Below, in pieces: positions 2,437 through 6,461 of a stretch of 11,654 nt of DNA. The stretch is from a virus. The notes beneath the pieces are model-generated. The model saw nothing but the letters and a program-made list of their open reading frames with translations. It searched no databases and was not told the origin of the DNA. The DNA is taken from UHGV virus genome UHGV-1617644, one strand, 5' to 3'. Each line of letters begins with the position of its first letter. The first letter of the stretch is position 1. A program made the translations under genes and the position numbers.

Positions 2437-2789
2437 TACGCCTCCGATGTAACAGTCGTTATTCCATAAAGAGTGTCGATTTCAGCGGAAAACATGACAC
2501 GTCGGGTCGTGGTATCCAGCGTCGTATTGAAAGAGAGGATTGATTTAACGCCCTGCGTTTCGAGGATGCGCTTACGGATCGCCAGGTTGTAGGTTTCCGG
2601 CTTCTGCTTACCGAGTACGGACTGGATCCACGGAGTCCCCTCGGTGGTGTCGAGAAACCATTGCCCATACCACAATTCGAATCGCGTTTTTACCGCCTGC
2701 GCCACGGCCTCCGGTGAGTTAATCAGCCAGGTGTCATCACCGCAGCCAAAGGTGTAATCGCCATCGGCGTCTTCACGTCTGTATCGCAT
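2436..2789 (-). CDS. Baseplate wedge/assembly protein (117 aa; gpW / gp25-position equivalent)
   Basis: Translationally coupled between the spike and baseplate-J genes; size typical of gpW-like proteins. Synteny only; sequence not recognised. Confidence 0.5.
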   Translation of the reverse strand: MRYRREDADGDYTFGCGDDTWLINSPEAVAQAVKTRFELWYGQWFLDTTEGTPWIQSVLGKQKPETYNLAIRKRILETQGVKSILSFNTTLDTTTRRVMFSAEIDTLYGITTVTSEA

Positions 2790-3541
2790 CAGTTTACCCC
2801 GTCGGTACTGCTTTCACCGCGCTGAACACCACCATGAGTGTGCGTATCATCGATTGGCTTGCCGTTAGCCTTCACGCTCCCCAAAAACTCAACAGCACCA
2901 GTGATTTTTGAAGCCACACCAGAAACCACAGACCCCACCATGCCCCCCATCCAGGTTAACAGGCCATGAATGGTTACTTTCTCAGAAAAATCAGCCAGGG
3001 GGGCAACCACATCAAGCCCCCCCGGAGCGACAATTTTAATTTTCCTGGTATCAGGATTAAGCTCAAAATAGGTGCTGCCGTCGTCACTACGCAACTGTGT
3101 GGCACTGGTATTAATACCGCTAATCTTCCTAGCCTGCGACTGGGGACCGACAATACAAAACGCATCCGATAAATCATGCATTCTGTCATCGACCGGCTCC
3201 TGTATCCCGCCACTCTGCCACCAGAAATCAATACAACGATCGGCAAAAACGACAAGACACTCATCCCCGGCTTTAACCGGAAAAGTCAACGTACAGCCTC
3301 CGCCGCGCGGAAATACCACTGGCACATCCACCAGCAACGGGTAATTTTTGGTAATGCGGTTACCGTCGTTATCCTTTTCAACCGAACGGATAGCTGGCTG
3401 CACAACCGCCGTCACCGCGTCGGGATCGAATGACTGAACAATGCCAGGCAAGGCGACACGGATCTGGTTCTTTGTTGTTTCCCGTTCAGATTTGAATGTT
3501 TCGGCAAGGTCGCCGCTGCGGGTCTGGTCAGATACTGCCAT
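2789..3541 (-). CDS. Baseplate central spike protein (250 aa; P2 gpV / Mu gp45-like position)
   Basis: GGAG 8 nt before ATG; first gene of the spike-wedge-J-I-fibre block; C-terminal Gly-rich region with a THTH motif that I recall resembling the His-containing apex of gpV-type spikes. Confidence 0.6.
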   Translation of the reverse strand: MAVSDQTRSGDLAETFKSERETTKNQIRVALPGIVQSFDPDAVTAVVQPAIRSVEKDNDGNRITKNYPLLVDVPVVFPRGGGCTLTFPVKAGDECLVVFADRCIDFWWQSGGIQEPVDDRMHDLSDAFCIVGPQSQARKISGINTSATQLRSDDGSTYFELNPDTRKIKIVAPGGLDVVAPLADFSEKVTIHGLLTWMGGMVGSVVSGVASKITGAVEFLGSVKANGKPIDDTHTHGGVQRGESSTDGVN

Positions 3542-3560
3542 TTAGTAGGCTCCAGAAAGC

Positions 3561-3590
3561 AAAAAACCCGCCAGATGGCGGGTTTTTATT
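3561..3590. terminator. Rho-independent hairpin terminator, bidirectional by sequence (AAAAAA-CCCGCC-AGAT-GGCGGG-TTTTTATT)
   Basis: Perfect 6-bp GC-rich stem (3567-3572 / 3577-3582), 4-nt loop, A-tract upstream and T-tract downstream. On the minus strand it reads CCCGCC-ATCT-GGCGGG-TTTTTTGCTTT, about 20 nt after the 131-aa stop. Confidence 0.65.
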
Positions 3591-3606
3591 AATAAATCAG
3601 TTAGAC

Positions 3607-4002
3607 CTAAACGGCTACATCAGTCTTCATTTGTTCCCATTGAGAAAAAATTGTTTTTACTTCCAAGATTGATTGTTGTGCCATTGCTTTATTTATGCCA
3701 CAACTACTTAAATCATAATCAGCCTCATTCCGAGCTAACCTCTGTTGCTCAAGTTTGTAAGCCATAGATTTTAGACTTCGAGGATCATAGGGTTCCAGTT
3801 TATTTTCTCCCTTATTTTTAAGATAAGAGATAAGGCTGGCATGATGATCCCGAGTATAAGCAGGAAGACTAGTTAGATTATCTTTAATTTCATGGTAGAG
3901 AGCGTAATATGCTCGTGAAATAGCATTACGATAACCAATCTCACAATCTTCAGCAAAACAACGTTCGGCCGAAGACAAAAACTCAGAACTAGTTATAGGC
4001 AT
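3607..4002 (-). CDS. Small alpha-helical protein with HEPN-like signatures (131 aa), second gene of the cassette
   Basis: ATG at 4002 lies inside the last codons of the 256-aa ORF; weak SD AAGAG. Contains RAYYALYHE (residues 30-38, an R-x6-H spacing) and LARNEADYD (residues 89-97, R-N-x3-Y where HEPN families usually have R-x4-6-H). Assignment is from recalled motif patterns, not an HMM hit. Confidence 0.7.
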   Translation of the reverse strand: MPITSSEFLSSAERCFAEDCEIGYRNAISRAYYALYHEIKDNLTSLPAYTRDHHASLISYLKNKGENKLEPYDPRSLKSMAYKLEQQRLARNEADYDLSSCGINKAMAQQSILEVKTIFSQWEQMKTDVAV

Positions 4003-4759
4003 ATTTACACTCTTTTAATCCATTTCTTTCAACGGAAAATCTTGCTATCAGGTTACAATCATCAAGCAAATCGATCGAGCAGATTTCATCAGCAAGTCGC
4101 ATATTCATTGCAACAACCCGCTCTGGAGACGCCTTAACCACCTCAACCAAATACGTTCCACCAGACGCCCCGTTAATGTCCGCGCGATATTCAGTTGACG
4201 GGAATTCAGCCATAACTCTGTGCACAGCCAAGGCAACTTGCCTATATTGCTCTGAAGAGCACCCTGAATTTTTATAAGCTTCATCCATATCGTTAATTAC
4301 CTCCTGCAAGAAGGTTTCTGCGTCATCCCTATGCTCTTCTTCGGATAACATTTTGCAATGACGCCCTAAATACTCCACGCATTTCGATAGTTTCCCTACC
4401 AAGTACGCAACGCCGCCAGCTTTGTAAGTAAACCACTTTGTAGGAAACTTATCAGCTAAAGAATATATGTAGTAATCCAGTTTTTCGAGTAGAGAAAATC
4501 GCTCGAGAAGTTTACAAAAGATCCGTGCGAAATTAACGTCAGCATGTGGAAGGATGACCTCAAGCGACTCAATCCCAAAGAGCACCTCACCCTTAGCTAT
4601 ATAAGCCAACGCTACAAGTGCTTCAGCCATAGGAGTATGATTAGAACCATACTCCGAAACCACTTCTCGGAAAGTCCACATATCAAGTGGCTCCCCACTG
4701 TTGATTACATTAATCAACTGGTCAAAACGCTCTTCGGCTTTTAGTTTTGGTCTCGCCAC
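3989..4759 (-). CDS. Hypothetical protein (256 aa from GTG at 4759; alternatively 230 aa from ATG at 4681), first gene of a two-gene cassette
   Basis: Low-GC ORF with no motif I recognise; no nucleotidyltransferase GSxxRG...DxD motif and no CxxC zinc-finger spacing. GTG at 4759 has a weak SD; the in-frame ATG at 4681 has GGGGAG 9 nt upstream. Its 3' end overlaps the next gene by 14 nt. Confidence 0.7.
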   Translation of the reverse strand: MARPKLKAEERFDQLINVINSGEPLDMWTFREVVSEYGSNHTPMAEALVALAYIAKGEVLFGIESLEVILPHADVNFARIFCKLLERFSLLEKLDYYIYSLADKFPTKWFTYKAGGVAYLVGKLSKCVEYLGRHCKMLSEEEHRDDAETFLQEVINDMDEAYKNSGCSSEQYRQVALAVHRVMAEFPSTEYRADINGASGGTYLVEVVKASPERVVAMNMRLADEICSIDLLDDCNLIARFSVERNGLKECKYAYN

Positions 4760-4789
4760 AGTTCACTCACTACTTATTTTTTGTCAGAT

Positions 4790-4817
4790 TTTATGTTCGC
4801 GTATACAGTTTAGTCAA
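4790..4817 (-). promoter_or_regulatory. Candidate sigma70-type promoter for the two-gene cassette (-35 TTGACT, 16-nt spacer, -10 CATAAA)
   Basis: Read on the minus strand in the 173-bp AT-rich intergenic region upstream of the 256-aa ORF: TTGACT (4817-4812) and CATAAA (4795-4790). The -10 matches consensus at only 4/6; judged by eye. Confidence 0.3.
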
Positions 4818-4932
4818 TCCACATCTGATCTACTTAGTAGTTTCGCACAAAATCCCCCTTAGAAAATGAATCTCTAGATTTTACTACGAGCCCATTTCCC
4901 TGAAAAATCGAGGATTTTCTACTCTAGTGCCA

Positions 4933-5394
4933 TTAGAACCCTTTTGATTTTGCAACACGAATACCACCAGCCCAACCATTAAAATCAATCACATTACTAC
5001 CGGGGACAGGATTATTTGTGTTGAAAGCATATCTAGCACCAATTTTCCATGCTTGCGGACTAACACTAGGATCCTTTGACAGTTTTATCCACTCTTTCAT
5101 ACCGTTGTAAATATATTCCTGACAAGAATCCCGGGTTCCTTTGCGGTTGGTGTATGCGTCCAAATCATTACATTGCTGGAATGTGTTCCTGATGATGTCA
5201 GCGAAATCATCTAAGGTCATTGTAAAACGTCGCCCATTCATTGAGAAAAAAGGCTTCACAGATGCGTAATGTTGCCATTCCGTAAACTTTTGCTGCTCCA
5301 TCAGGTCGGCTGCTTTAAATTCAAACTTACCTGGTTCGGCAAAAGAAGTCGTAGAAATCAGCATCGTTATTGCAACTATCACCTGTTTTTTCAC
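4933..5394 (-). CDS. Secreted/periplasmic protein of unknown function (153 aa), accessory gene
   Basis: Classic Sec signal peptide MKKQVIVAITMLISTTSFA|EP; two Cys in the mature part (possible disulfide). GTG start 2 nt after the hub TAA with GGGGAG 7 nt upstream, so translationally coupled. Gene is visibly more AT-rich than the flanking tail genes. Confidence 0.7.
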   Translation of the reverse strand: MKKQVIVAITMLISTTSFAEPGKFEFKAADLMEQQKFTEWQHYASVKPFFSMNGRRFTMTLDDFADIIRNTFQQCNDLDAYTNRKGTRDSCQEYIYNGMKEWIKLSKDPSVSPQAWKIGARYAFNTNNPVPGSNVIDFNGWAGGIRVAKSKGF

Positions 5395-5396
5395 GC

Positions 5397-6461
5397 TTAC
5401 GCTCCCCGTTGCATTGCCAACTGGCTAGGTATATCGCTAGCCCCACGCGCTTCGCACATCATATCCATGTACCACGCCTGGCCCCTTGTGTCGCCAGTGT
5501 ACATAATCCCGCGAACAATATAAACGCCATCCGTTGCGATGCTGGCAGGCTGCGATGTGGTGCCGCTTAGCGTAATATTTCCGTCCGTGTTCTGGTCGGT
5601 GATCTGCCCACCAGCCATCGCAATATCGTTGTTCGACAACGCGGTACGATAGACGGAAGCCTGATCCAGCTGAATGAGCCCGTTAACCCGGATGTTCGGA
5701 TTAATAAGAGCGCGGACGTTTACGCCGTTGCCGATGGTCTGCTGCGGCATGCCAATAAGCCCGGTAGCACTGTTGAGCACAATCGCTTCGTGAACATATT
5801 CATTAGTCGCCACCATCTGGCGCTGACCGTCCACGAATTGCCATGTTGCGCCACATTGCCCGGCTACGTTATCCATTAGATGCCGCGTCATGCCAAAGAG
5901 CACCCGCCCCCGGGGGAATACAGTAGCAGGCATTTCAGGCGTCAGGCCTTCGGTCACACCTTTGGCTTCGAAGTCTTTCATCAGCGCACGGTTCACATCA
6001 GCGACCGTGTAACCGGCAGCCAGCGTCTGTGAGGTTATACTGGTGGCAAAAGCCAGATCAGTATCTGCTGCCTGAATCAGGACGTAGGAATCAACCGGAC
6101 TGTCTTTTCCTGTGACCGAGTAGCGAATTTCACCGCTGAAAATCAGTCCGTAGTTGCGCCCATCACTCTGGCCCACGTCCGCCGCGTCAACTTCCCGCAC
6201 TGTCCCGACGTCGCTTGCCGACACCTCCGGCGCGATACCGTCGTAACCCGCAATCAGACGCACTTTCGAAAACTCCTGCCCGGTAATTCGGTTCACAGTA
6301 TCTGCCGAAAGGTTATAAATTTTGATAGTCCCTACCCGGGACGCGCTGCTGATGTTGAACCAGTCGATCGTAAAGGTGACTTTAAAATCACTTAGCTCAA
6401 TTCCCTGACCGTTCCCGTCCACAAGCTGCAGCTCGAAATGTCTCATCCAGTTCTGTGACAT
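5397..6461 (-). CDS. Baseplate hub protein (354 aa; Mu gp44 / P2 gpD-like position)
   Basis: GGAG 5 nt before ATG; position immediately before the spike module and size fit a hub protein. Synteny-based call. Confidence 0.6.
   Translation of the reverse strand: MSQNWMRHFELQLVDGNGQGIELSDFKVTFTIDWFNISSASRVGTIKIYNLSADTVNRITGQEFSKVRLIAGYDGIAPEVSASDVGTVREVDAADVGQSDGRNYGLIFSGEIRYSVTGKDSPVDSYVLIQAADTDLAFATSITSQTLAAGYTVADVNRALMKDFEAKGVTEGLTPEMPATVFPRGRVLFGMTRHLMDNVAGQCGATWQFVDGQRQMVATNEYVHEAIVLNSATGLIGMPQQTIGNGVNVRALINPNIRVNGLIQLDQASVYRTALSNNDIAMAGGQITDQNTDGNITLSGTTSQPASIATDGVYIVRGIMYTGDTRGQAWYMDMMCEARGASDIPSQLAMQRGA

Follow-up and report, generated by a model that had tools for sequence, protein, structure and literature searches.

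The stretch of DNA analyzed here, hereafter called the window, comprises 11,654 nucleotides (nt) of the virus genome UHGV-1617644, and the gene in question encodes a 153-residue protein with a predicted export signal directly behind the baseplate hub gene (Table 1). The window is the tail module of an Escherichia coli prophage, and every gene in it lies on the minus strand. Over positions 3400-5600, the sequence matches the chromosome of strain PS1Thumoskin9 with 100% identity; there the prophage adjoins yfhH and terminates with a pinE invertase, and genes for the head, for lysis, for the Q antiterminator and for a VapE primase are found further on. The genes are arranged in the order sheath, tube, chaperone, tape measure protein (TMP), Dit-like protein, Pam3-gp18-like plug, hub, the 153-residue protein, a 256-residue protein and a 131-residue HEPN-like protein, followed by a gp138-like spike, a 117-residue protein, baseplate J, a DUF2612 protein and a fibre. 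The nearest GenBank phage genomes are those of E. coli vB_EcoM-606R2 and its relatives, Yersinia phage YP3 and Salmonella phage SEN34 (genus Brunovirus).

Table 1. Coordinates of the features between hub and spike in the window.
Feature	Position	Strand	Remarks and basis
Coding sequence of the 153-residue exported protein	4933..5394	-	GTG 5394-5392, TAA 4935-4933; open reading frame list, sequence, homologues, ratio of nonsynonymous to synonymous substitutions (dN/dS)
Predicted signal peptide, residues 1-19, MKKQVIVAITMLISTTSFA	5338..5394	-	predicted cleavage SFA/EPGK; heuristic n-region, h-region and -3/-1 rule
Mature domain, about 134 residues	4936..5337	-	alignments and AlphaFold2 (AF2) model
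Shine-Dalgarno-like GGGGAG	5402..5407	-	within the 3' end of the hub gene, 7 nt ahead of the GTG
Baseplate hub gene, 354 residues	5397..6461	-	phrog_196; weak E217_GP41 match
Downstream cargo: 256-residue gene (phrog_17809) and overlapping 131-residue HEPN-like gene (phrog_5176)	3607..4759	-	separate unit
Promoter-like site of the HEPN pair, TTGACT-18-TAAAAT	4817..4788	-	consensus match
Intrinsic terminator, 11-bp stem and T-run	3562..3587	-	end of the cargo region between hub and spike, a short distance ahead of the spike gene; consensus-pattern scan
Central spike gene	2789..3541	-	gp138-like N domain and apex motif; downstream border of the variable region

The hub stop codon TAA (5399-5397) is followed by the two nucleotides GC (5396-5395) and then immediately by the GTG. 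The original prediction had read this GTG, located 2 nt behind the hub stop and preceded by GGGGAG, as the start of a gene translationally coupled to the hub. The coordinates were confirmed, and the layout suited to coupled translation, a very short gap and an own Shine-Dalgarno (SD) sequence, recurs in homologues. A 2-nt gap and a GTG start were found in Citrobacter, 1 nt and TTG in Klebsiella, 1 nt and GTG in Prodigiosinella, all with G-rich SD equivalents at the hub junction, and the E. coli variants display a 2-nt gap and a TTG start. As short gaps (1-2 nt) and a GTG or TTG as start codon are common to the homologous junctions, the GTG is favored over an internal ATG at codon 11. The same coding sequence is annotated by RefSeq in a 100% identical E. 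coli record (WP_052929233.1). In Hafnia phage yong1, gp67 (L019 6001-6459) has been annotated from a later ATG, by which the signal peptide is lost; this is likely an annotation error. The gene was also said to be AT-rich, and its composition is indeed foreign: GC amounts to 40.9% and GC at third codon positions (GC3) to 39%, compared with 54.5% and 61% in the hub gene. The low-GC tract extends from the gene to the terminator ahead of the spike gene.

The predicted N-terminus agrees with the proposed cleavable Sec signal peptide. In a heuristic test, the n-region carries K2 and K3, the hydrophobic core of 10 residues has a mean Kyte-Doolittle value of 2.79, and SFA/E occupies residues 17-19/20, so that a charged n-region, an h-region within the range of 7-15 residues and small residues at -3 and -1, as expected of a type I signal peptide, are all present. 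A lipobox of the form [LVI][ASTVI][GAS]C is absent, and the N-terminal 40 residues contain no cysteine. A comparable signal peptide or lipobox was found in nearly all full-length relatives, with LTSC, LFGC, TAGC and IVAC in the long paralogues, while the N-terminal sequence itself is not conserved. The mature part, in contrast, is well conserved among homologues of 55-98% identity from E. coli, Citrobacter, Klebsiella, Raoultella, Yersinia, Prodigiosinella and Hafnia phage yong1. This is a genuine gene whose homologues are under purifying selection, since homologue pairs with measurable dS gave dN/dS values of 0.03-0.20 (median 0.13) and the AF2 model of the mature part, calculated from a 25-sequence alignment, is confident (predicted local distance difference test 90.5; predicted template modeling score 0.85). 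The modeled fold is helix-rich and consists of an N-terminal helix, a three-stranded sheet and four helices. In the family alignments (full-length numbering) C75, C91 and W116 are invariant, and N53, W102, F138, W141 and R146 nearly so. The model places the two cysteines on a long hairpin of helices, as would suit a periplasmic disulfide C75/C91.

Behind the export signal, the protein carries the motif set of its family, NGR...C-x15-C...W...SKDxS(I/V)S..AW...F..W.G..RV. Only 23 family representatives were detected among 1.84 billion proteins. Searches of Pfam (E up to 0.1), PHROGs, NCBIfam and PADLOC (E up to 1) gave no match, which includes the PADLOC-DB anti-phage defence models and the Pfam models of the periplasmic lysozyme inhibitors Ivy, MliC/PliC, PliG and LprI/DUF1311, and a profile search of the Protein Data Bank (PDB) gave none either. 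The uncharacterised Legionella protein LPG2271 (PDB 5l1a) has 10% sequence identity, and its score is marginal for a helical protein. Literature searches on Hafnia phage yong1, lpg2271, STY1064-1066 and SEN34/Brunovirus turned up no information about function. Judged by sequence, the family represents a predicted exported domain of about 130 residues that appears to be undescribed before.

To place the gene among its relatives, 113 loci holding both hub and spike were compared. The hub-spike gap ranges from 0 to 1935 nt and falls into about 50 size classes. In 110/110 loci with a gap, the first open reading frame after the hub codes for an exported protein that starts -10 to +3 nt from the hub stop, and three kinds of occupants were found: the 113-residue phrog_3443 protein, the 153-residue family and a 241-residue lipoprotein. 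An unbiased subset of 75 loci, picked by hub similarity alone (at least 95.8% identity), contained phrog_3443 in 63 cases, the 241-residue lipoprotein form in seven and the 153-residue form in five. Whichever occupant was present, TMP, Dit-like protein, hub, spike and baseplate J displayed median identities of 97-99% to the window, and in these 75 loci the type of exported protein was not found to vary in step with any of these five tail proteins. A similar picture emerged at the species level from 70 representative Enterobacterales genomes with hub identities of 38-96%. Here the slot is filled by phrog_3443 in 55 (and one more cut by a contig end), by the family of the 153-residue protein in six (and one more cut) and by another small lipoprotein in one; in the three loci with the weakest hub match to the window the spike directly follows the hub. 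An exported protein is thereby found in about 63/64 species-level loci that have a post-hub gene, and the shares in Enterobacterales prophages are approx. 84% for phrog_3443 and 10-16% for the family of the 153-residue protein, the 241-residue form included.

The gene in the window is a minority occupant of a conserved exported-protein position and represents a swappable accessory cassette, not a part of the tail, because the unrelated phrog_3443 fills the same slot while the flanking tail proteins stay 97-99% identical. It is not conserved in all phages that share the E217/SEN34-type tail module, being replaced by phrog_3443 in 63 of the 75 loci. Among 5426 complete E. coli genomes, the hub occurs in 306 and a similar gene in 12 of these; together with the GC difference to the hub, this presence or absence among close relatives is the mark of a moron. 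It is not a one-off moron, since the slot is nearly always filled by an exported protein. If the hydrophobic N-terminus were not a signal peptide, its site inside the tail-tip block and the translational link to the hub could point to a virion or tail-assembly component. We regard this as hardly credible: replacement by a non-homologous gene in about 84% of otherwise nearly identical tail modules and its lack where hub and spike abut argue against such a role, and the lipobox-bearing paralogues must be exported. In agreement with the original prediction, the protein would, on these comparisons, not be a structural component of the virion.

The common occupant phrog_3443 resembles the 153-residue family in its slot (between -8 and +19 nt relative to the hub stop, in most cases between -4 and +3), its signal peptide and two conserved cysteines, but it is far commoner, and homology between the two was rejected (hhalign probability 0.5%). 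The 113-residue protein is present in the E2348/69 prophage and in Yersinia phage YP3. In SEN34 (L009 3452-4123) only a 77-residue copy without signal peptide was found 110 nt past the hub, followed by a 138-residue protein with an N-terminal membrane anchor (phrog_13160). A Serratia aquatilis prophage (L186 8092-12980) harbors seven tandem phrog_3443 copies after the hub, one of them short (75 residues), with hydrophobic N-termini and 25-89% mutual identity. This array resembles an immunity or specificity array and suggests diversifying specificity.

Most members of the 153-residue family reside within the tail-tip gene block of E217-type temperate myophages, where they occupy four junctions. 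The close homologues are all located 1-3 nt past the hub and ahead of the spike, and this junction also holds a 183-residue form and the 241-residue E. coli lipoprotein form. The latter (L023 1708-2433) is named 'HMG-box domain-containing protein' in RefSeq, likely an annotation error. The plug-hub junction is a further site. At the TMP-Dit junction, members were found in Acinetobacter prophages and in a metagenomic phage contig whose TMP carries Peptidase_M23, and the chaperone-TMP junction is occupied by ZF40 gp56, which we infer to be H9C1A6. The ZF40 genome paper makes no mention of gp56, lipoproteins or morons. A few members lie outside the tail block, in integrase/primase islands and in one ambiguous metagenome contig (P0011). 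In one such island (L128 6127-14658; L017 3124-11985), an integrase and a 356-residue lipoprotein, which is a long version of the family protein, are followed by another integrase-like gene and a DUF927 primase. This island comes immediately after the genes for portal, MuF and scaffold, at the place expected for the major capsid gene, and appears to be a mobile element inserted in a prophage head module. The IMG/VR contig with this island also has a 153-residue family member after its hub (L035). Another, P4-like island (L136 1018-12363) contains an integrase, AlpA, a DUF927 primase, a single-stranded DNA-binding protein (SSB) and a 331-residue family lipoprotein; next come a fibre gene with a Collar domain, a gene for fibre assembly and then an RNase_A_bac/CdiI_2 toxin-immunity pair. 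As the family is limited to one tail type and a few integrative islands, a phage-borne target of the protein is suggested.

The family joins a known general kind of proteins, the accessory proteins that are directed to the envelope and encoded within phage tail operons. One of them is HK97 gp15, a moron product that blocks DNA entry, depending on features of the tail; its accessory gene has a deviant GC content and lies between the chaperone and tape measure genes (PMC3594210). The gene described here is likewise accessory, deviant in GC and located among tail-tip genes, and ZF40 gp56 sits at exactly the junction of gp15. However, gp15 is a small inner-membrane protein related to YebO with its own promoter and terminator, whereas our protein has a predicted cleavable signal peptide and an unrelated 130-residue fold, and its gene abuts the hub stop and has no detected promoter.

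A second precedent is Spackle (gp61.3) of T4, a small soluble periplasmic exclusion protein that acts on the incoming contractile tail tip (PMC7677548). By analogy, the 153-residue protein might be an inhibitor, i.e. an immunity protein, of the TMP peptidoglycan hydrolase and guard the cell against puncture by superinfecting tails. The protein is predicted to be periplasmic and, according to the model, helix-rich with a likely disulfide, and in several phages family members directly adjoin TMP genes with muralytic domains. Nevertheless, such a role is quite improbable, as the associated TMPs carry differing muralytic domains or none detectable with Pfam. In addition, Spackle is an early gene product inhibiting the gp5 lysozyme, while the tail enzymes associated with the family vary, and no similarity to Spackle in sequence or fold was detected.

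Transcription signals of the gene were searched with consensus scans. On the coding strand, neither the hub gene nor the region ahead of the 153-residue coding sequence yielded a sigma-70-like promoter in the scan, which is weak evidence. Because no promoter was detected, transcription with the late operon and coupled or SD-driven translation is the simplest reading. The strong downstream terminator, likewise a consensus match, is common to the whole cargo region. It is situated in the middle of the tail/baseplate operon, with all variable cargo between hub and hairpin, and recurs 19-20 nt before the spike start in 80/110 loci, and 33 nt before it in one more, according to a strict pattern. 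The same hairpin lies directly 3' of the homologous gene in Citrobacter and is present in E2348/69; equivalents were located at L006 6484-6503 and L002 3164-3187. The terminator makes most sense if some transcription is not antiterminated by Q, which hints at expression of the cargo in the lysogen. The claim that the protein is made with the late tail proteins was therefore retained in part: juxtaposition to the hub and the lack of an own promoter speak for it, but exclusively late production is not established in view of the conserved terminator before the spike.

Expression together with the tail proteins would also suit a late lytic envelope function other than exclusion. The protein might obstruct a receptor or a trigger from within the periplasm and thereby keep released progeny from being lost to cell debris, or influence lysis timing or envelope integrity. 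The tight juxtaposition to the hub, the non-ATG start and the missing promoter are in line with this, the near-universal exported protein in the slot across the lineage suggests a benefit for the phage and not only for the host, and the family includes lipoprotein forms. There is also a precedent in Llp of T5, a periplasmic lipoprotein with a disulfide, encoded next to a tail gene, which acts from the periplasmic face of its receptor and for which a role in 'lytic conversion' was proposed (PMC9586334). Llp and Cor share with the 153-residue family the export and the location beside tail genes, and the long family forms are lipoproteins as well. However, Llp and Cor are lipoproteins of approx. 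60-80 residues whose genes neighbor that of the receptor-binding protein and which jam TonB-dependent receptors; the protein from the window lacks a lipobox and has twice their size, and its gene is associated with those for hub and TMP instead of the fibre or receptor-binding genes. Moreover, the prophage has a holin and a GH104 endolysin elsewhere, plus one adjacent unnamed open reading frame, and SEN34, which is listed as a phage genome, has only the truncated phrog_3443 without signal peptide. A late lytic function of this sort is thus unlikely.

The cargo 3' of the gene differs between loci. In Citrobacter there is none, in Klebsiella other small genes follow and in Prodigiosinella a DUF2335 gene; the E. 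coli variants carry a YafO pair or a second HEPN-type pair, and the window has its own HEPN pair. The 131-residue protein of this pair gave weak matches to Pfam HEPN and PADLOC HEPN_IX. With its promoter-like site and the strong terminator the pair has a classic moron layout, and it is possibly a toxin or defence pair. A diverged version (243 and 142 residues) is found at the same place in another E. coli prophage (L021). The HEPN pair was considered as partner of the 153-residue protein and rejected, as homologues of the latter occur with other cargo or none. Such accessory cargo (HEPN pair, YafO, DUF2335), the terminator downstream, the foreign GC content and the patchy distribution would be compatible with a lysogenic-conversion factor for host benefit and unconnected with phages, a Lom/Bor-type envelope protein acting in stress or host interaction and parked in a permissive spot of the tail operon. 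We consider this distinctly unlikely. Most members examined are found in the tail-tip block of one tail type, at four junctions and in hosts as distant as Acinetobacter, Pectobacterium and Enterobacterales; apart from the ambiguous contig mentioned above, the remaining ones are on mobile islands. Furthermore, a search of the 1.84 billion representatives, with its 23 hits, detected no chromosomal housekeeping homologue.

Three further observations concern the surroundings. At the hub position of vB_EcoM-606R2 (L008 4547-5611) two open reading frames of 212 and 139 residues are annotated instead of one gene of about 354 residues, which suggests a frameshift, a sequencing error or another hub arrangement. 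The 117-residue sheath-initiator homologue (L021 and L023 535-890) is named 'thioredoxin domain-containing protein', likely an annotation error. Finally, an RNA element or a repeat as feature at the locus was excluded: Rfam gave sub-threshold matches only, every one of them on the terminator hairpin (3561-3587), and repeats were not detected.

Among the roles put forward as speculation in the original prediction, the genomic association favors one in entry or exclusion; none of the results speaks for or against receptor or envelope modification. As the most probable of the functions considered, we tentatively propose, with somewhat less than an even chance of being right, that the 153-residue protein is a periplasmic entry-exclusion factor. 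It would be a small, Sec-exported, soluble protein of the periplasm, probably stabilized by a disulfide bond, and would be translated from the hub transcript by means of its own SD sequence and GTG or by coupling to hub translation. Once in the periplasm, it may disturb infection after adsorption, at the stage of penetration or of DNA entry, by those phages that employ a tail-tip complex of the same type (tape measure, plug, hub and spike). An induced or lysogenic cell would thereby be protected. Export, timing of expression, the exclusion function and its target are all what we infer from genomic data.

Several results fit this proposal, namely the family-wide signal peptides or lipoboxes, the two invariant cysteines, the association with the tail tip at four junctions, the accessory status and the replacement by a non-homologous protein. 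The seven-copy array in Serratia and the conserved terminator before the spike give it indirect support. Other points weigh against an entry-exclusion factor. Classic exclusion genes are expressed from the prophage, and the consensus scans found no promoter that would drive expression in the lysogen. As the protein type co-varies with no tail protein, no specific partner is indicated. The restriction to one lineage could reflect a limited range of gene exchange instead of a phage-specific target, and export is predicted by heuristics only.

A wider version of entry exclusion takes the whole slot into account. The position behind the hub might be a dedicated exclusion or immunity locus for the entire lineage of temperate contractile-tail phages, in which unrelated periplasmic proteins are swapped as cassettes. 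Both phrog_3443 and the 153-residue family would then neutralise the incoming tail-tip complex in the periplasm, similar to the effector-immunity logic of type VI systems, and integrative islands with the same domain may use it against related phages. At present, a locus dedicated in this way seems rather unlikely.

If the 153-residue protein indeed blocks entry, it would add a novel fold and a novel family to the periplasmic exclusion factors. It would also provide a genomic rule for finding more of them: one would look at the gene that comes first behind the hub in prophages of the SEN34/E217 type, which approx. 6% of complete E. coli genomes contain. The slot is a natural experiment, in which near-identical tails are combined with unrelated exported proteins. 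It could reveal at which step of penetration a contractile tail is open to attack from the periplasm, and it is also relevant to the resistance against therapeutic phages that prophages mediate.
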